From Dehalococcoidia bacterium (GTDB lineage Bacteria; Chloroflexota; Dehalococcoidia; SHYB01), in assembly GCA_034421515.1 (NCBI GenBank), contig DAOUKH010000003.1:29691-93690 (forward strand): DNA of 64,000 nucleotides, in the 5' to 3' direction. Of this stretch, positions 2,990 through 64,000 are shown in pieces. How positions within the stretch are numbered: position 1 is the stretch's first letter; each line of letters starts with the position of its first letter. Below the pieces are notes generated by a model that worked only from the letters and a program-made list of their open reading frames with translations, was not told the origin of the DNA and did no database searches. The position numbers and the translations under genes are program-made.

Positions 2990-4684
2990 CTACCCCGCCG
3001 CCGACTCGACGCGGCGGGAGACGGGGGCGCCTTGCTCGTGGTTGTTCACGAAGCCGCGCGACTGGTTCTTTTCGGGGTCGCCGGCGAGCATGAGGCCGAT
3101 CCACTCCGGCTTGGAGAAGACGGGGACGAGCCGGTCGGGGTCGGCCGACTCGACGTAGGCGGGCGGCGCGGACCCCGACGCAGCGAGCGCGGGCAGGTCG
3201 AAGTCGTAGGTCGAGGCGCGGCGGGCGTACTCCTGCAGCCGCCGCGCGGGTATCTTCGACCGCTCGTAGAGGAACGCGCGCACGTCGTCCTTGGACATGC
3301 CGTCGCGCGCGATCACCGACGCCGTCGCCGGGCTCATCGCAAGCAGCGGACACCAGCGCCCAAAGATGGCGGCGTTGAACGACCAGTACTCGTTCTCCAT
3401 CCCGAAGACGTCGGCGAGCATGCCCAACAGGTCTTCGGCGCGGTCGCCGATCGTGTAGATCGGGGGGCTGATGCTGACCACGCTCTGCACGGTGACGACG
3501 CTCTCATTGGGCGCGAAGCCCCGGTCCATGGCAAACGTGGGCCAGCCGATCTCGCGAGCGGCGGGCTCGTTCTCCGCGATGGCCATGTTGAACGTCGCGC
3601 CGAAGGCCGCCTTGTCGCCGCTGCCCGGCGGCGTGCGCAGTCCGGCGACGTTGCGCATGTAGAGGCGGACGAAGCGCCCCACGCTGCTATTGGCGCGGTT
3701 GCCGACGCGCAGGACGCCCGCGCCGGAGGCGAAACCGAGGCGTTCGATCACCGGGCCGCCGACGATGACCAGCGGCTCCCACCCCGGCGTGCTGCCCGCA
3801 TCCTCGAGGCGGAACTCGGGGTCGGCGATGGCCTTGACCGCCGCGACGAGCACCGGCATGTACTCGGGGCGGCATCCCGCCATCACGCCGTTGACGGCGA
3901 CGCTCCACACCGTGGCGAGCCGGTTGTCGGGCGGCAGCGTGCCGAGCGGTTCGTCGGCGTCGCGCGGCGTGCGGCGGAGGAACTCCTCGACCCGGTCAAC
4001 CGTCGGCGGGACGATGGGGAGCCCGTCGGTCCAGAGGAGGGAGTCAAAGCGTTCCTGCACCGCGTCGAGCGGGCCGTGAAAGACGATGTCGCGCGGCGCG
4101 GGTTCGGACTCCTCGCCTGCCAGACCCAGCGGCTTCGAAAAGGCCTCGGTCAAATCATCGGCGAGCGCGAGCACCTTGCCGCGGAACGCCTCCGGCGAGT
4201 CAGTAGCGATGACGCCGGGGTACTCGACGTGCGGCAGCGCTTCGACGCCCAGACCGCGGGCCACGGCGGCGGCTTGGCCCTTGAACGCCGTGGCAAGGAC
4301 GGAGACCGAGGGCACGCCGGCGCGCTCCGCTTCGACGCTGGCCCGCACCACGGCGGGGGTGCAGCTCCCTCAGGAGCCGACCGCCGCGACGACGGCATCC
4401 ACCCCCAGTTCGCGGAGCGCGTCGGGGATGCCCGCCATCACCTCGCGCTCGTCGGCGCCGTGGATGTTGCCAAAGGTGTCCCAGTCGACGAAGCGCGCGC
4501 CCGGCGCCCGCTCGGCGAGGACTTCCTTCATCAGCTCGAACATGCGGTCGCCCTTGAACAGGCCGTTCCACAGGAAGCCGATGGTCTTGCCGTTCAGGCC
4601 GTTCGGCCGGGGCGCGGGACGCAGCGCGCGGCGCGCCCGGGGCGCCAGCGGCCAGACGACCTCGTACGCCGGTTCGTTCGGCAT
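2990..4684 (-). CDS. UGSC-family selenoprotein fused to a conserved partner domain; in-frame UGA (Sec) at 4370-4372
   Basis: ORFs 4370..4684 and 2990..4351 share one frame and are separated only by TGA. Read-through gives ...AVVAAVGS-U-GSCTPAVV..., the U-G-S-C motif. A hairpin follows the UGA. The C-terminal ~400 aa matches paralogs at 59070-60152 and 62675-63718 (DGLPIVPPT, AVNGVMAGC). Confidence 0.7.
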
Positions 4685-4691
4685 GACCGCG

Positions 4692-5507
4692 CTAGGGAAG
4701 GTTCGTCCAGGCGCCCGCTTCCGAGCGGACCCAGCCGCTGCTGGCGAAGGTTCCGCCGTCGACGCTCAGGGTGACTCCCGTGATGTACGACGCCATCTCC
4801 GACGCGAGGAAGACGCAGGCCCCCGCCACCTCGTCGACGGTCCCCTGCCGCCGCATGGGGACGCCCCGGTAACGGTCGGAGCCGGGCTCGGCGTGGGCCC
4901 CGAACGCGGCCGTGTGCGGCGTGTCGACAACGTCGGGGGCGATGGCGTTGACACGGATGCCGTGATCGGCGAGCTCGAGCGCCAGCGTCCGGGTGAAGTT
5001 GATCATCCCCGCCTTGCACGCCGCGTAGACGGAGAAGTTCGGCGCGGCGCGAATCCCCTCGATGCTCGTGATGTTGATGATCGACCCCTTGCGGCCGTCC
5101 TTCATCATCGCCTGCACCGCCTGCTCGGTGGGGCCGAACAGCCCGTTGAAGTTCAGGTCGATGTGCTTCTTCCACGCCGGCGGGCCGCCCAATTCCATGA
5201 ACTGCGCGTAGCGCGTGCCGCCCGCGTTGTTGACCAGGATGTCGACGCCGCCGAGCTCGCTCACCGTGCGCTCCACCAGCGAGGTCACCTGGTCGTAGTC
5301 GCGGATGTCGGTGGTGATGGCGACGCCCTTGCGCCCGAGGCCGCAGACCTGCTCGGCGACGGCGTCGCCGCGCTCGGCGATCTTGTCGGCGATCACCACG
5401 TCGGCGCCGAACTTGGCGAAGGTCAGGGCGATGCCCTTGCCGATGCCGTCGCCGCCCCCGGTGACGATCGCGACCTTGTCGGTCAACAGAATGCTCGATG
5501 GGTCCAT
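4692..5507 (-). CDS. SDR family oxidoreductase
   Basis: TGGGDGIGKG Rossmann motif and catalytic S...YxxxK (YAACKAG); stop lies 8 nt upstream of the UGSC gene start, suggesting an operon. Confidence 0.8.
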   Translation of the reverse strand: MDPSSILLTDKVAIVTGGGDGIGKGIALTFAKFGADVVIADKIAERGDAVAEQVCGLGRKGVAITTDIRDYDQVTSLVERTVSELGGVDILVNNAGGTRYAQFMELGGPPAWKKHIDLNFNGLFGPTEQAVQAMMKDGRKGSIINITSIEGIRAAPNFSVYAACKAGMINFTRTLALELADHGIRVNAIAPDVVDTPHTAAFGAHAEPGSDRYRGVPMRRQGTVDEVAGACVFLASEMASYITGVTLSVDGGTFASSGWVRSEAGAWTNLP

Positions 5508-6152: not shown

Positions 6153-6243
6153 GGAGGGATCGCATAGTCTGGCCTAGTGCACCCGCCTGCTAAGCGGGAG
6201 GGGTTCGCGCCCCACATGGGTTCAAATCCCATTCCCTCCGCCA
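6153..6243 (+). tRNA. tRNA-Ser (GCU)
   Basis: Acceptor GGAGGGA/TCCCTCC; anticodon loop cuGCUaa; long variable arm; 3' G-CCA. Confidence 0.85.
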
Positions 6244-38553: not shown

Positions 38554-39735
38554 CTACCCCCCGCCGAGGTAGTCGAGCGCCGTCGCCGCAAGGAGATGCG
38601 CCGCGGCGGGCAACACCGACTCGTCGAAGTCGAAGGCGGCGTTGTGGTGGCCTTGGGTGAGGCCGCGCGCCTCGTTGCGCGACCCCATCATGACGTAGCA
38701 GCCGGGGACGCGGTCGAGAAAGAAGGCCATGTCGTCGCCGAGCGCCGCCTGCTCGACGGAGGCGATGCTCTCGGGCCCGAGCTCGCGGGCGGCGACGCCG
38801 CGCACCAGCTCGGTCATCGCCTCGTCGTTGACCACGGGCGGCGCGAGGTACTCCGAGGTGAACTCGTAGTCGGCCCGCGCGGCAAGGCAGACGCCGCGCA
38901 CCACGTCCTCGGCGCGCTCGACGAGCGCGTCGCGCTGCGCGTGGTCGAACGTCCGCAGCGTCCCCTGCAACACCGCCTCGCCGGGAATGACGTTCCACGT
39001 CGTCCCCGCCTGGAGCGACGTGACGCTCAGGACGACGGGGCTCCCGAGGCGCGACTCGCGGCTCACCAGCGTCTGCAGAGCCAGCACGACCTGGGATGCC
39101 GCCGGGATGGGGTCGATGGTCTGATGCGGCGTCGCGGCATGGCCGCCCCGCCCCACGATCTTGATCCGCAGCCGGTCCACCGAGGCCCAGATCGGCCCCG
39201 CGCGCAGCCCGACGGCGCCGGCAGGTAAAAAATTCCACAGATGGAAGGCGAAGATGGCGTCCACCGGCGGGTCGGCGAGGACGCCGTCCTCGATCATCGC
39301 GGGGGCGCCGGCCGCCATCTCCTCCGCGGGCTGGAAGATGAACTTGACGTTCCCCGCCAGGTCGCCGCGCCGTTGGGCGAGCATCTCGGCCGCGGCAAGG
39401 ACCGCCGCGGTGTGGCCGTCGTGGCCTCAGGCATGCATCGCGCCGGCGTTGACCGACCGGTAGTCGACGTCGTTCGCCTCCTCGATGGGGAGGGCGTCGA
39501 TGTCGGCGCGGAGGGCGACGGTCTTGCCCGGCCGCGCGCCGCGCAGCAGCCCGACGACGCCGGTCTGCCCCACGCCGGTGCGCACGTCGAGGCCCAGCGC
39601 TTCGAGCCGCTCGGCGATGATCCCGGCGGTGCGCGTCTCCTTGAAGGCGAGCTCGGGGTGCGCGTGGAGGTCGCGGCGGAGGGCCACGATCTGCGGCGCG
39701 AGTGCGGCGGCCTCGTCGGCGAGGTTGGTAGCCAT
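38554..39735 (-). CDS. M20D-family amidohydrolase (hippurate/aminoacylase-like) with in-frame UGA (candidate Sec) at 39427-39429
   Basis: ORFs 39427..39735 and 38554..39384 share one frame. Joined translation reads ...RSVNAGAMHA-U-GHDGHTAAVLAAAEML...; the UGA sits at the metal-ligand Cys of the M20D MHACGHDxH motif. The rest of the protein is intact. Confidence 0.65.
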
Positions 39736-48122: not shown

Positions 48123-48243
48123 TTCCGACCTCCTCGCCTGGGCCTAGCGTAATCTGAGGGCGGACGCGTCCGGCGGCCGCCCGGCCCACCTTACCTTATA
48201 TCATGTTCGCGCGTAACGTGCTCGCCGTGTGGAAGTCGAGAAG

Positions 48244-48325
48244 TGGGGAAGAGGAGACTCGAACTCCTACGCCTTTCGGCACATGATCCTAAATCATGCT
48301 CGTCTGCCAATTCCGACACTTCCCC
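48244..48325 (-). tRNA. tRNA-Leu (UAG)
   Basis: Minus strand: GGGGAAG...anticodon loop uuUAGga...long variable arm...CTTCCCC-A; no encoded CCA. Confidence 0.8.
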
Positions 48326-48362: not shown

Positions 48363-48438
48363 TGGTGAGCCGCACAGGACTCGAACCTGTAACCTACTGA
48401 TTAAGAGTCAGTTGCTCTACCAATTGAGCTAGCGGCCC
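48363..48438 (-). tRNA. tRNA-Lys (CUU)
   Basis: Minus strand: GGGCCGCTAGCTCAATTGGTAGAGCAACTGACTCTTAATCAGTAGGTTACAGGTTCGAGTCCTGTGCGGCTCACCA. Confidence 0.85.
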
Positions 48439-58924: not shown

Positions 58925-59075
58925 TTGTGGGGGAGCGGGCGCGTCGCGACGCGCCCCTACAGGGAAGGGGCACCCCTCCCGGCCCCCGCCCTCCGACGCG
59001 CCTGCGGCGCGTGCCCTCTCTCAGTCTCCCCCAGAGGGGGAGAGGTTAAGGTGCCACCTGCGGGGGCGGTTAGGC
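58925..59075. repeat. composite palindromic intergenic repeat (between the cupin gene and the UGSC locus)
   Basis: cctacagggaaggggcaccc... plus cgcctgcggcgcgtgccctctctcagtctcccccagagggggagaggttaagg. Confidence 0.6.
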
Positions 59076-60152
59076 GGGGGCGGGCCTGATCGGGCGGCTG
59101 GTGGCCCAGCCGCCCATGTAGCCCCAGGACTGGATGCAGGCGCAGAAGCCGGCCTGGAGTCCGCCGGCCACGGTGATGAGCAGGTCTTCGGGCTTGCGCA
59201 GCACGGCGAGCATCGTGGTGTCGTCGAGGTCGTCGGGGGTTGCAGGCCAGACGTCCTCGGGCGCGCCGGCGTCCCACTGGATGCGACCGCGGTCAAGCAT
59301 GGTCTTCAGCGATACGAGGGCCCGCTCGTGGACGTGCTCCCCGATGGCCTGCTTCGACCAGCCGGCGTCGTAGAGCGGCTGGGCGACAAGGGGATTGAGC
59401 ACGAAGAAGACCTGCCCTCCGCGGCGGATGGTGTGCCAGCAGACCCGCACTTGCTCGATCATATCGAGCAAGGAGGCGTCGGGTTCGCGCGAGCCGCCGT
59501 ACTGGACGGGGCTGTCGCAGCCGATGACGGTGACGCCGCCGGCGCTGTCCACGCCGAAGTCGGCATGGAGCGGACCCCAGGGCGCGTCGGGCGACTCGCC
59601 GATGCAGTAGACGTACTTGCCGGGCGAGCCGAGGACGGACTTGTCACCCGTCTCCGGGTAGCCGCCGCCGAGCACCATCATCACGAGGCGCAGCGCCCGC
59701 CCGATCGTGGCGTTGGCGCGGTAGCCGGGCCCGAAGGCGCTGGTGCCGTAGTTGATTTCGAGGTCGTCGACGACCGGGCCGCTGACGATCACCAGCGGCC
59801 CCGCGGGGTGCGTCGTGGCCTGGAGCCCGTTGAGGTTGAAGCGCTCGTCGAGGGCGGCCTCGACGGCGGCCAGCACCACGGGGAAGTAGTCGGGACGGCA
59901 GCCCGCCATCACGGCGTTGGCGGCGACGGTCTCGATGGTGGCCACTCCCATGCGCGGCGGCACCGGCCCGAGGACCTCTTGAGGGTCGCGCCCGCTGCCC
60001 TCGACCATGCGCTCGATGAGGTCGGGGGTCGGTGGGATGATGGGCAGGCCGTCGGTCCAGCCCTTGCGGTAGAACTCCTCGATGGTCTCGATGCAGGAGT
60101 CCCAGCTATCGGCCGCGGTGAAGGTGGACGCCGCTTCGCCGGACTGGGTCAT
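59070..60152 (-). CDS. UGSC-associated conserved partner protein (paralog 2), separate gene
   Basis: MTQSGEAASTF...WTDGLPIIPPT...AANAVMAGCRPDYFPVVLAAVEA...; its ATG overlaps the UGSC gene stop as ATGA. Paralog of the C-terminal domain of 2990..4684 and of 62675..63718. Confidence 0.6.
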   Translation of the reverse strand: MTQSGEAASTFTAADSWDSCIETIEEFYRKGWTDGLPIIPPTPDLIERMVEGSGRDPQEVLGPVPPRMGVATIETVAANAVMAGCRPDYFPVVLAAVEAALDERFNLNGLQATTHPAGPLVIVSGPVVDDLEINYGTSAFGPGYRANATIGRALRLVMMVLGGGYPETGDKSVLGSPGKYVYCIGESPDAPWGPLHADFGVDSAGGVTVIGCDSPVQYGGSREPDASLLDMIEQVRVCWHTIRRGGQVFFVLNPLVAQPLYDAGWSKQAIGEHVHERALVSLKTMLDRGRIQWDAGAPEDVWPATPDDLDDTTMLAVLRKPEDLLITVAGGLQAGFCACIQSWGYMGGWATSRPIRPAPA

Positions 60153-60766
60153 GGCCGGTTTGCGGCTCGCGCGGCCGTTGGGGGCTCGGCGGATTTCGGG
60201 GTCAGCGTCCCTTCCATCAGCCATCGGACTACGCCGGGGTAGGCCGCTTCGCCCTGGGCCCGGTTGGCCTCGGCGTCGCCGAGATAGCCGGGGAGGATGA
60301 CGGGCTCGAATTCCTCGCAGCGCAGGTGGCGCCGCTTCATGAACGCCAACTGGCGGAAGACGTCGAGGATGACGACGGCGGCGGGGATGCCGTCGGTCTC
60401 GAAGGTGATCCCGTCGTGCATACAGCACGACGTGCAGGAGCCTCAGGCCCCGACGCCGATCACCATGGAGTCGACCTGCGCCTTCAGCTCCTCGTACATG
60501 TCCGGCGGGACCCGGGCCGAGAGGTTGGGCTTGCGTTTGAGGATTACTTGGTCGACGCCGTTATGTTCCTGTAGGAGCTCGCCGATGCGCTCAAGGACGA
60601 TGTGGCTGTCTTGGACGCCGTCGTCGAGCAGGCCGACGGTCTTCCCCCGGAGGGTGTCCACACGTCTGGCGAGGGAGGTTGGCTCGCGCCAGACGTGGCC
60701 GGACGGGTCGACGACGGTGATTTCTCGGTTCACGGTCTGCGCCATGGCGTTAGCCGTGCGGGTCAT
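60149..60766 (-). CDS. UGSC-family selenoprotein (stand-alone); in-frame UGA (Sec) at 60443-60445
   Basis: ORFs 60443..60802 and 60149..60421 are in one frame, separated only by TGA: ...MVIGVGA-U-GSCTSCCMHDG.... A perfect 8-bp stem hairpin (CGUCGUGC-UGUAU-GCACGACG) starts 10 nt after the UGA. Start set at ATG 60766, which overlaps the upstream hicB-like stop. Confidence 0.7.
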
Positions 60767-61487: not shown

Positions 61488-62672
61488 CTAACCCCTATGC
61501 CCACGCCGGCGGACGTGGGCGGCGCTGAGGTCGGCGACGCTGGGGCAGCCGAGGAGGGCCAGGGCGCGGCGGAGCTCGGTGCGGAGGAGATCGAGGGCGC
61601 GGTCGACGCCGGGCTCGCCGCCGGCGCCGATGCCGTAGAGGTAGGCGCGTCCGATGGCGACGGCGCGCGCGCCGAGGGCCAGCGCCTTCGCCACGTCGGC
61701 GCCGCGGCGGACGCCGCCGTCGAGGATGACCTCGGCCCGGCCCGCCACCGACTCGACGACGGCGGGCAGCGCGTCGAGGGCCGCCGGGGCGTGGTCGAGC
61801 TGGCGCCCGCCGTGGTTCGACACGACGATCCCCTGCGCGCCGAGCGACGCCGCCCGCGCCGCATCCTCGGGGTCGAGTATCCCCTTGACCGCGAAGGGGC
61901 CGTTCCACTCGGCGATCATCCATTCCAGGTCGTCCCACGTCACCGAGGGGTCGAACTGGGTGTTGATGTACGTCCACAGCGCGGTGAGGTCGCCGCGGCC
62001 CGCGTCGCCCTGGCCCGCGACGTTGGCGAACCCGATGCGGCGACTCGTCAGGAAGTTCCACCACCACGACGGATGCAGCGCCGCGTCGAAGGCCGCCCCC
62101 AGGGTGAGCGACGGTGGGATGGTCATGCCGTTCCGGAGGTCGCGCTCCCGCTGGCCGAAGACGGGCATGTCGGCGGTGAGCATCAGGGCGTCGTAGCCGG
62201 CGTCGCGGCAGCGGCTGAAGAACTCGCGGACGAGCCCCCGGTCCTTCCAGACGTAGATCTGGAACCAGTTCGGGCCGTCGGACGCCGCGGCGAGCTCCTC
62301 GATCGACAGCGTGCTCAACGAGGAGAGCGAGTAGATCAGCCCGGCCCGGTGGGCCGACCGCGCCGCGGCGGCCTCGCCCTCGTGGTGGAAGAGCCGCGTC
62401 ATGCCCGTCGGCGCGAGCATGACCGGCATCGATACCGGCGTCCCCAGGACGGTGGTGGAGAGATCGACCGTCGACACGTCCCGAAGCACGCGGGGCAGGA
62501 GCTCGTAGTCCTGGAACGCCGCCTCGTTACGCCGCGCCGTGACCTCGTCCTCGGCGGCGCCGTCGGCGTAGTCGAACACGGCGCGGGGCAGGCGGCGCAT
62601 AGCGAGGCGGCGCAGGTCGGCGATGGAGTGGCAGCGGGCCAGCCGCGCCTCGGTGGAGAAGGGGAGCGGCAT
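61488..62672 (-). CDS. FMN-dependent alpha-hydroxy acid dehydrogenase/oxidase (LldD/glycolate oxidase family)
   Basis: Start set at MPLPFSTEAR...; FMN-binding TIM-barrel motifs (...VSNHGGRQLD..., LDGGVRRGADV); its ATG lies 3 nt after the stop of paralog 3. Confidence 0.8.
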   Translation of the reverse strand: MPLPFSTEARLARCHSIADLRRLAMRRLPRAVFDYADGAAEDEVTARRNEAAFQDYELLPRVLRDVSTVDLSTTVLGTPVSMPVMLAPTGMTRLFHHEGEAAAARSAHRAGLIYSLSSLSTLSIEELAAASDGPNWFQIYVWKDRGLVREFFSRCRDAGYDALMLTADMPVFGQRERDLRNGMTIPPSLTLGAAFDAALHPSWWWNFLTSRRIGFANVAGQGDAGRGDLTALWTYINTQFDPSVTWDDLEWMIAEWNGPFAVKGILDPEDAARAASLGAQGIVVSNHGGRQLDHAPAALDALPAVVESVAGRAEVILDGGVRRGADVAKALALGARAVAIGRAYLYGIGAGGEPGVDRALDLLRTELRRALALLGCPSVADLSAAHVRRRGHRG

Positions 62673-62674
62673 CG

Positions 62675-63718
62675 CTACCGCCGTATCGGCTTGGTGACCG
62701 ACTTGGGCGAGCCGAACGACGGCATGTAGGTCGAGTGCAGGCCGCCGTCGCCGCCGGCCACGGCGATCATCCAATAGTCCGCCGTCGGCACCATCGGGTA
62801 CATGCCGTCCACGATCAGGTCGGGGCGGGTGTCGCGGCGGCTTCTCGCGGTCGCGTGGATGCGGTCGCCGGGCAGGCGGGTGTGTTCGTGGAAGTAGCGC
62901 TTGACGTCGTCCTTCGACCAGCCCCCTTCGGCCAGGGCGCGGGCGTGGCCGGGGTTGAAGACCACCAGCGGCTCGCCGGTGAAAAGGGAGAACTGCGTGA
63001 TCGCGGGCGCGGTCATCGTCTGCGCGAAGGCGGCCATGCCGCCCTCGGCCATGACACGGTCGCCGTAGGTGCAGTTCAGCGTCGTGTTGGGCGCGATGAC
63101 GGTGACGCAGCTCTCGTCCGCGTCGAAGCCGCGTTCGACGTGGAGCGGGTCCCAGGGGCTCTCTTCTTCATTCTCGCCGAAGCACAGAGAGAATTTGCCG
63201 GGAAAGCCCTGCGTCGCCTTGTCGACCTCGCCGGGCACGGCGCCCCCGATGTTGAGCAGAATCAGGCGGACGGCCCGCCCGATCGAGGCGTTGGCGCGGG
63301 TTCCCGGCCCGAGGCACCCGGCGCCGGAGTTGATCCCGATCTCGTGGCGGATAGGGCCGTTCACAATGACGCCGACCCCCACGGGGTTGGTGGTGGTCTG
63401 GATGCTGTAGAGGAGGAACTCCTCCTCGGTCATCGCCTCGACGGCGGTGGCGACCACCGGCATGTGCTCGGGCAGGCAGCCCGCCATCACCGCGTTCACC
63501 GCGACCTTCTCGACGGTGGCCTCGGCCACCGCAGGGTGCACGACGCCGAGGACGTCGTCGGGCGCCCGACCCGACGCGGCGACCATCGCCGCGACGCGCT
63601 CCTCCGTGGGCGGCACGATGGGCAGCCCGTCGGTCATGCCGCGGGCGTGGAAATACTCGATGGCCTCGTCGTAGCCGCCCGCGGAGACGCGCGTGGAGGT
63701 GAGGTGTGGGTCGGCCAT
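62675..63718 (-). CDS. UGSC-associated conserved partner protein (paralog 3)
   Basis: MADPHLTST...MTDGLPIVPPT...AVNAVMAGCLPEHMPVVATAVEA...GAGCLGPGTRANASIGRAVRL. Confidence 0.6.
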   Translation of the reverse strand: MADPHLTSTRVSAGGYDEAIEYFHARGMTDGLPIVPPTEERVAAMVAASGRAPDDVLGVVHPAVAEATVEKVAVNAVMAGCLPEHMPVVATAVEAMTEEEFLLYSIQTTTNPVGVGVIVNGPIRHEIGINSGAGCLGPGTRANASIGRAVRLILLNIGGAVPGEVDKATQGFPGKFSLCFGENEEESPWDPLHVERGFDADESCVTVIAPNTTLNCTYGDRVMAEGGMAAFAQTMTAPAITQFSLFTGEPLVVFNPGHARALAEGGWSKDDVKRYFHEHTRLPGDRIHATARSRRDTRPDLIVDGMYPMVPTADYWMIAVAGGDGGLHSTYMPSFGSPKSVTKPIRR

Positions 63719-63723
63719 CGCGG

Positions 63724-64000
63724 CTATGCCTCGGACGCCTCGGCGGGAACGTTCACCACGCCCCGGTCAGGGACCAGGAGGGCGGCGACGGCGGCGTCGA
63801 GCGCCCGGTAGGCGATTTCGCGGACCAAGGGTTCGTCAAGCGTGTCGTAGGGGAAGGGGAGGATGACCTGGGGCAGCGCCGGCATCCCCCGGCCCTTCGC
63901 CGAGGCCGCCGCCAGGGCTTGGAAGGCCTTGGTGCTCACGGTCACCGTGGGGATGCCCTGCTTCTCGATCTCGATGCTGTCGTGGATACACCACGCGGTG
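63724..64000 (-). CDS. UGSC-family protein, 3' part only; the U/C-G-S-C motif lies just beyond the window end
   Basis: In-frame translation to the window edge: TAWCIHDSIEIEKQGIPTVTVSTKAFQAL...PQVILPFPYDTLDEPLVREIAYRALDAAV...*. It aligns with the post-UGSC region of the other two copies (CMHDGITFETDGIPAAVVILDVF...EPVILPGYLGD...). Confidence 0.5.
   Translation of the reverse strand, partial: TAWCIHDSIEIEKQGIPTVTVSTKAFQALAAASAKGRGMPALPQVILPFPYDTLDEPLVREIAYRALDAAVAALLVPDRGVVNVPAEASEA

Follow-up and report, generated by a model that had tools for sequence, protein, structure and literature searches.

A probable selenoprotein gene of the UGSC family with a fused, unnamed partner domain, and its split paralogues, in a Dehalococcoidia bacterium

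The UGSC family corresponds to the "UGSC-containing protein" of Zhang and Gladyshev (PMC1976440, PMC2398784) and ranks with the commonest selenoprotein families of aquatic metagenomes, with 255 sequences in the Global Ocean Sampling data and the top rank in several non-marine samples (PMC2398784). A fusion of UGSC to a domain called "Unknown_1" was reported in 2008 (PMC2398784), and a 2026 review groups UGSC with the selenoproteins of largely uncharacterised function. Here, we analyzed a UGSC gene located at positions 2990-4684, minus strand, of a 64,000-nt stretch of contig DAOUKH010000003.1 from a Dehalococcoidia bacterium (the window). The gene contains an in-frame TGA at the family's selenocysteine (Sec) position and joins the UGSC domain to a second conserved domain, referred to here as the C-domain, which may correspond to Unknown_1.

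Besides the UGSC family itself, two described systems come closest to this locus. Selenoproteins of the PrdB/GrdB type, the selenoprotein B subunits of D-proline reductase and of the glycine, sarcosine and betaine reductases, cooperate with another polypeptide, which binds the substrate, and with a thioredoxin-type reductant. The Sec insertion sequence (SECIS) of the E. coli fdhF type is spaced 11 nt from the UGA and carries GU in its apical loop. The UGSC locus shares with PrdB, GrdB, GrdF and GrdH a UxxC motif with Sec and a weak but consistent profile similarity, and with fdhF a coding-sequence stem-loop directly 3' of the UGA, the 11-nt spacing and the apical GU.

The fused gene and its in-frame UGA

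Two minus-strand open reading frames (ORFs), 4370-4684 (104 aa, ATG start) and 2990-4351, lie in one frame and are separated solely by the TGA at 4370-4372. A first-pass annotation of this DNA had described them as consecutive same-frame ORFs with only a TGA in between, and our analysis confirmed both the coordinates and the read-through. Together they comprise 564 codons and a TAG stop in one frame with a single in-frame TGA. The read-through translation (MPNEP...DAVVAAVGS-U-GSCTPAVVRASVEAERAG...AVNGVMAGCRPEY...) totals 564 residues, and the sequence around Sec reads DAVVAAVGS-U-GSCTPAVVRAS. The Sec codon thus supplies residue 105, i.e., the U of U-G-S-C, where full-length homologues have Cys at the aligned position, and Cys108 (4361-4363, minus strand), the putative resolving Cys of the UxxC pair, is invariant in both alignments of the UGSC region. 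Since the G+C content at third codon positions (GC3) is 0.88 in the ORF 5' of the TGA and 0.92 in the ORF 3' of it, as fits a GC-rich genome, both halves look coding. The protein would consist of the UGSC domain (residues 8-182; 4139-4663), a linker and the C-domain (residues 196-564; 2993-4099), the latter with the motifs DGLPIVPPT and AVNGVMAGCRPEY. Considering these results together with the comparative evidence given below, we regard it as highly probable, for the explanation as a whole, that the minus strand of 2990-4684 is one gene for a 564-residue UGSC-family selenoprotein, and not two genes.

Membership in the UGSC family, also claimed in the first-pass annotation, was upheld by profile searches. 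With C put for U, Pfam PF24696 (UGSC) matched residues 8-182, spanning the TGA, with a score of 110.8 bits (cut-off, 25), and the isolated UGSC domain scored 114.5 bits. U105 falls on the family motif U/C-G-S/T-C, of which C105, G106 and C108 are invariant or nearly so in the alignments. The fused gene thereby shares with the described family the position of U-G-S-C, a score above the Pfam threshold, the occurrence of Sec and Cys forms and a SECIS downstream. It differs in that its score against the NCBIfam equivalog NF041046 is 68-72 bits (68.4 at the lowest), under the cut-off of 125 bits; all 12 UGSC domains tested nevertheless matched this model, with a best E-value of 1.4e-26. The gene adds no new family: UGSC is known, although uncharacterised, and the ~570-aa Cys architecture has already been named by NCBI, where several such Cys forms, e.g., from Actinacidiphila, Chelativorans and Nocardioides, appear as "UGSC family (seleno)protein".

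A homologue search of 5.8 billion proteins returned 2942 matches, and the best 120 of these 2942 were considered in detail. Sixty-six were uninterrupted proteins (~561-603 aa) whose matches took in 92-100% of the query, or 98-100% for full-length Cys homologues of ~570 aa. Among these 66 full-length homologues, 62 had C-G-S/T-C at the U position, so that the Cys orthologues for which the first-pass annotation had suggested looking were indeed found. The remaining 54 were gene calls of ~437-491 aa that covered 75-80% of the query. When the N-termini of 40 of these short calls were inspected, all but two were found to start with "(M/V)(V/L)RA...", directly after the motif, the pattern left by gene callers that take a Sec codon for a stop. 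No family of homologues that terminates at the U position, a finding that would have spoken for a genuine stop, was seen among the homologues.

In addition, a scan of genome collections revealed at least 596 loci encoding relatives, and 79 of them were fetched for locus analyses with local hidden Markov models (HMMs). In the fetched loci and the window, 77 of 97 UGSC domains, from several phyla, had an in-frame TGA at the Sec position. Among the closest relatives, the TGA is conserved in an ENA contig (L001, ~95% nucleotide identity) and in the chromosome of a Dehalococcoidia metagenome-assembled genome (MAG) (L004, OZ253453.1; ~88% nucleotide identity, ~13 kb of synteny), and both share with the window the order SDR (short-chain dehydrogenase/reductase) gene, UGSC, TGA, C-domain. 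Public gene calls cut the selenoprotein at the UGA, as in P0001 (453 aa, 100% identical), in P0002 and in a 104-aa + 454-aa pair in L001 (9668-11365), and the annotation of the fused protein in this lineage is therefore wrong.

Two groups of unusual relatives were also observed. Cys-form proteins of 640-780 aa with a motif of the type GNGGCG(I/L)CT were found in gut and rumen MAGs of Bacteroidales, Bacillota, Verrucomicrobiota and Kiritimatiellia (L067-L080). Their hydrophobic N-terminus resembles a signal peptide or lipoprotein leader, and this branch would therefore sit outside the cytoplasm. In three larger proteins, P0166 (1254 aa), P0184 (1226 aa) and P0200 (845 aa), UGSC and the C-domain stand behind 100-480 additional N-terminal residues, and P0184 has a C-terminal copper-amine-oxidase N-terminal-like domain as well.

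A conserved stem-loop 3' of the UGA

The proposed SECIS of the fused gene (4337-4365, minus strand) has an upper stem-loop, CCCGC-CGUGGU-GCGGG, at 4357-4342 and a lower stem formed by GCUG (4365-4362) and CAGC (4340-4337). Its upper stem begins 11-12 nt after the UGA. In nearly all Sec forms, as judged from fused-type motifs in the fetched loci, the family consensus is UGA + 11 nt + (G)CCCGC-CGUGUU-GCGGG(C). When 59 distinct Sec-form loci from many phyla were aligned without gaps, the upper stem proved to be ~96% paired; the lower stem is looser, and the entire structure is 82% paired compared with 27-53% in slid controls. The pair closing the upper stem is G-C in 43, A-U in 3 and G-U in 3 of the 59 sequences.

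Sec and Cys forms of the family differ in how well they keep this hairpin. At least five of its six pairs were retained in 52/54 Sec forms and in 1/5 Cys forms (Fisher p = 1.6e-4). The Arg codon of the 3' arm is CGG in all 54 Sec forms and in none of the 5 Cys forms, and the Pro codon of the 5' arm is CCC in 50/54 and 2/5, respectively. The hairpin is thus maintained by synonymous-codon choice in Sec forms, and the comparison identifies the stem-loop starting 11 nt 3' of the UGA as the family's predicted SECIS element.

Three points count against this assignment. The Cys-form control of the codon test consists of five sequences only. Folding downstream of the UGA, a check put forward in the first-pass annotation, did return the SECIS as the minimum-free-energy structure of the 43-nt stretch, but the hairpin of the fused gene is no stabler than shuffled controls (z-scores of +0.4 to +1.5). 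Finally, its closing pair is a C-C mismatch, and an alternative register competes for the same 3' arm. That register is the SECIS-like hairpin of the first-pass annotation, CUGCACC-CCCGCCGU-GGUGCGG, which is indeed present at 4364-4343 and whose folding energy gives z-scores of +1.2 to +1.5 against shuffles. Over the 59 loci it shows five good pairs around a 12-nt loop with 75% of cells paired; since it overlaps CCCGC/GCGGG and is less conserved, it is less likely to be the functional fold. The original suggestion of a hairpin downstream of the UGA was therefore right, in that Sec forms keep such a hairpin and Cys forms have lost it, although the best register is CCCGC/GCGGG (4357-4342). Because the single-sequence fold has a z-score no better than shuffles, the evidence for the SECIS is comparative and not thermodynamic.

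Rfam searches, run on the whole window at gathering thresholds and on the two SECIS regions in E-value mode, gave no SECIS-family match, only chance matches to snoRNA and miRNA families. Compared with the fdhF-type SECIS, the element described here has a family-specific sequence that is not matched by an Rfam model, and its upper stem has 5 pairs only.

The C-domain, the split pairs and their neighbours

Neither the C-domain (~370 residues) nor its two window paralogues matched any Pfam model even at E <= 10, and the C-domain gave no NCBIfam match. PDB sequence searches with the single sequence and with a profile yielded only chance matches, e.g., to Hsp104 and myosin light chain. A structure predicted with AlphaFold 2 (AF2) for the window's own C-domain had a mean confidence (pLDDT) of 92, and no PDB fold matched the C-domain model. 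For a full-length Cys homologue (P0010), AF2 gave a pLDDT of 93.8 and a predicted TM-score (pTM) of 0.93, and a fold search with the full-length model gave only generic alpha/beta matches, all from the N-domain. The UGSC domain is predicted to be an N-terminal alpha/beta domain with a Rossmann/flavodoxin-like fold, which differs from the thioredoxin-like fold proposed in the literature (PMC2398784). The C-domain belongs to no named family and has no solved structural relative. It is nonetheless widespread: its family comprised 4056 representative clusters at E <= 1e-3, and the stand-alone type had at least 7939 homologous clusters. Among the best 120 of the latter, none had a Pfam match on the C-domain itself, and all listed homologues with a source name were called "hypothetical protein".

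An alignment of 51 sequences, which included the two split window paralogues, contained a single invariant Cys, Cys271 of the fused protein (AGC-RPEY; codon 3874-3872, minus strand). It is predicted to sit in a short loop between two helices. DGLPxxPPT, N332, R337, D357, E371 and W381 are likewise invariant, with the split paralogues included.

The window carries three paralogous pairs of UGSC and C-domain, namely the fused gene and two split pairs. In the first split pair, a stand-alone UGSC selenoprotein gene (60149-60766, minus strand; GVGA-U-GSCTSCC, Pfam UGSC 131.8 bits) has its Sec codon at 60443-60445. Its own putative SECIS (60432-60412, minus strand), CGUCGUGC-UGUAU-GCACGACG, begins 10-11 nt after the UGA, has the same geometry as that of the fused gene and is clearly stabler than shuffles (z = -2.5). 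The cognate C-domain gene (59070-60152, minus strand) overlaps the UGSC gene at ATGA, is 32% identical to the fused C-domain and scores 293 bits with the C-domain HMM. Of the second split pair, the window includes the 3' part of a UGSC gene (63724-64000, minus strand), which the end of the window truncates directly behind the U motif, begins TAWCIHD... and covers UGSC profile positions 111-186. It is followed by a stand-alone C-domain gene of 347 aa (62675-63718, minus strand; 35% identical to the fused C-domain) and, after that, by a gene for a flavin mononucleotide (FMN)-dependent dehydrogenase (61488-62651; FMN_dh, 476.9 bits). The first-pass annotation had recognized one second locus with a separate C-domain gene; there are two further loci and not one. 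Its reading of fusion and fission was correct, and both arrangements are widespread among bacteria.

In fact, fusion is the common form of the subfamily and is not special to the window's genome. Of the 114 C-domains in the fetched loci and the window, 88 share a polypeptide with a UGSC domain, another 11 lie no more than 700 nt from a UGSC gene that stands apart, and 2 fall at a locus edge. The other 13 have no UGSC within 700 nt, and most of them are second copies directly after a fused gene. Two split loci, L082 of a Dehalococcoidia MAG and L084 of a Syntrophorhabdaceae MAG, were also fetched independently, each with UGSC followed by a C-domain gene, and their stand-alone UGSC genes had been called in two pieces around the UGA (96 + 55 aa). 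L082 also has an ABC system of the Leu/Ile/Val type. Since both modules recur as adjacent separate genes, twice in the window and in many genomes, these results indicate that the UGSC domain and the C-domain form one predicted functional unit. At six loci (L033, L034, L044, L047, L058 and L059, at about 10-14 kb in each), the fused gene is followed by a C-domain-only paralogue (~420-440 aa) and then by a gene for a TrxB-like reductase.

We clustered the ORFs neighbouring UGSC in the 79 genome loci. In 16 of them, the UGSC gene adjoins a gene for a low-molecular-weight TrxB-like flavoprotein (Pyr_redox_2, CATC motif); these loci come from Actinomycetota, Acidobacteria, Alpha- and Betaproteobacteria and a Lachnospiraceae MAG. 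The same TrxB-like reductase is encoded 30 nt downstream at the split locus L084. No thioredoxin gene was found near the UGSC loci. In one protein of 549 aa (P0224), the post-Sec part of the UGSC domain is joined to the C-domain, which is followed at the C-terminus by FeThRed_B, the catalytic chain of ferredoxin:thioredoxin reductase (FTR); this single polypeptide is a Rosetta-stone hint at the electron source, and no FeThRed_B was found in the 80 fetched loci. Other recurrent neighbours were SDR genes (14/79 loci) and TctC-type binding proteins (29/79), the latter mostly in Betaproteobacteria, where the TctC family is abundant anyway.

In the window itself, the neighbours encode an SDR, major facilitator superfamily (MFS) transporters, a cupin and an FMN-dependent 2-hydroxy-acid dehydrogenase. 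The SDR gene upstream of the fused gene is real (4692-5507, minus strand; adh_short_C2, 209 bits) and is arranged in the same way in L001 and L004. Its TAG stop is separated by 7 nt from the ATG at 4684, where the first-pass annotation had counted 8 nt, and the SDR gene is probably co-transcribed with the fused UGSC gene. A tRNA scan of the window detected genes for tRNA-Cys (GCA; 819-893), tRNA-Ser (GCT; 6153-6243), tRNA-Leu (TAG; 48243-48325) and tRNA-Lys (CTT; 48363-48438), none of them tRNA-Sec.

Besides the two UGSC codons at 4370-4372 and 60443-60445, the window has a third in-frame TGA at a Cys position, at 39427-39429 in a gene for an M20-family amidohydrolase (38554-39735, minus strand). 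The encoded MHA-U-GHDGH aligns with the family's metal-binding motif MHA-C-GHDGH. GC3 is at least 0.90 in both halves of this gene, its downstream part matches Peptidase_M20 and M20_dimer, and an 8-bp hairpin, CCGCGGCG-GUCCU-UGCCGCGG (z = -0.7), begins 16 nt 3' of the UGA. The relative L081 (~90% nucleotide identity) retains the TGA. Among homologues, database entries are truncated only for close relatives (94-98% identical); all others (<=61% identity) have full length, which is what Cys forms would show. An M20/amidohydrolase family is absent from the prokaryotic selenoproteins listed in the 2026 review. The gene may encode a lineage-specific replacement of a Cys metal ligand by Sec.

Relation to PrdB/GrdB and proposed function

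Of the 12 UGSC domains tested, 10 matched PrdB (TIGR04483; best E = 3.7e-5) and 7-8 matched GrdB (TIGR01917), GrdF (NF040794) or GrdH (NF040795), over query residues 40-131 or 88-154, a region that includes U105. The UGSC domain therefore appears to be remotely related to the Sec-bearing region of PrdB and GrdB/F/H, which is not membership in those families. This similarity points to catalytic reductase selenoproteins and away from thioredoxins. UGSC systems also differ from those of PrdB/GrdB in several respects: the partner C-domain is unrelated by sequence to PrdA/GrdE, with no match of the C-domain or its two paralogues to the corresponding Gly_reductase model (PF09338) at E <= 10; the neighbour clusters of UGSC loci contain no GrdA, GrdC or GrdD genes; and UGSC ranges far wider in taxonomy and ecology, extending to aerobes and freshwater Betaproteobacteria. 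The relation to PrdB/GrdB, the C-domain without Pfam model or structural relative and the recurrent TrxB-like/FTR-like neighbours are new here.

From the gene structure, Sec codon, SECIS, domain pairing and recurrent reductase neighbours, we infer a catalytic role for the C-domain and a direction of electron flow. The UGSC + C-domain unit would be a Sec/Cys-dependent redox enzyme, i.e., a reductase, whose C-domain would bind a small substrate. The U105-x-x-C108 pair would deliver two electrons and thereby form a selenenylsulfide, which would be re-reduced by a dedicated disulfide reductase, either the adjacent TrxB-like flavoprotein or a fused domain of the FTR type. In the window's organism, which has no linked reductase, re-reduction would fall to an unlinked general thiol system. 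Since the neighbours are SDR, FMN-dependent 2-hydroxy-acid dehydrogenase, MFS, ATP-binding cassette (ABC) and TctC transporters and acyl-CoA enzymes, gene context suggests a substrate of the small organic-acid type.

Some of our results weigh against this interpretation. The profile matches to PrdB and GrdB reach at best 18.8 bits (cut-off 300) and 17.3 bits (cut-off 602), respectively, and are matches at the level of the region that includes the Sec. The TrxB-like neighbour is absent from the window and from ~80% of loci. Neither selA, selB and selD, sought by comparing 20 window ORFs with Pfam, nor tRNA-Sec, sought by the tRNA scan, was found within the 64-kb window, although its three in-frame TGAs at Cys positions support Sec machinery indirectly. 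Lastly, we found no experimental work on any member of the UGSC family in the literature.

The reading of the UGA as Sec was weighed against two rival accounts. If the TGA were a true stop, the locus would comprise two genes, one for a protein of 104 aa and one for a protein of 453 aa that starts at GTG 4351. This is how public gene calls split it (P0001 and the L001 pair), and TGA does serve as an ordinary stop in the window, e.g., at the end of the UGSC gene 60149-60766. However, termination would halve one Pfam domain and remove the family's defining motif, Cys-form homologues are continuous, and the downstream synonymous codons are constrained for the hairpin only where the codon is TGA, all of which makes a true stop very improbable. 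Still harder to credit is a pseudogene, or an assembly error in a Cys-form gene: although TGA is one substitution away from TGC and TGT, and the hairpin of the fused gene is not thermodynamically exceptional, the identical TGA occurs in independent assemblies (at ~95% and ~88% nucleotide identity) and in 77 of the 97 domain copies across phyla. GC3 is, moreover, high on either side of the TGA, and two more in-frame TGAs with downstream hairpins are present in the window.

Two other accounts accept the Sec codon and concern what the protein does. The UGSC domain might be a thioredoxin-like thiol-disulfide oxidoreductase or antioxidant, as proposed in 2008, with the C-domain as its client or regulator in place of a substrate-binding catalytic domain. 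The UxxC motif is typical for thiol oxidoreductases, the original description suggests that the fold is thioredoxin-like and that the conserved Cys in fused domains acts in redox chemistry (PMC2398784), and TrxB-like neighbours without a nearby thioredoxin gene would fit the UGSC domain as a thioredoxin equivalent. We judge this account unlikely, though worth keeping in view. More improbable is a true analogue of D-proline or glycine reductase, in which Cys271 would be processed to a pyruvoyl group, as in PrdA/GrdE, and bind an amino substrate whose C-N bond would be cleaved reductively upon attack by Sec105. The remote similarity of UGSC to PrdB, GrdB, GrdF and GrdH around Sec would agree with such an enzyme, as would the single invariant Cys of the partner domain with a Gly before it. 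Thioredoxin-reductase genes lie nearby in grd operons, and the TrxB-like gene near UGSC recalls them. Yet the C-domain matches neither PF09338 nor any other PrdA/GrdE model even at E = 10, Cys271 is placed by the model in a short loop between two helices, and genes resembling grdA, grdC and grdD were not seen in the neighbour clusters. The family is, furthermore, present in many aerobes (Streptomyces-type actinomycetes, Nocardioides), in which, to our knowledge, Stickland-type reductases are not expected.

Returning to the reductase proposed above, we tentatively suggest, as a possibility that we would put somewhat below even, that UGSC and the C-domain, together with a disulfide reductase dedicated to them (TrxB-like, or of the FTR type where fused), constitute a widespread, unrecognised class of selenium-dependent small-molecule reductases. 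Such enzymes would distantly share stock with PrdB/GrdB, would carry a substrate module of a fold not in the PDB, and would serve different substrates through several paralogues per genome.

For the UGSC family, the window provides a well-resolved three-copy case, one fused and two split, that offers testable handles on function. These are an obligate partner domain without a Pfam model, a remote link to PrdB/GrdB instead of a thioredoxin-like fold, and reductant partners of the TrxB-like and FTR-like types. Since Cys-form orthologues occur in culturable actinomycetes and proteobacteria, expression of these proteins would be possible without Sec machinery.

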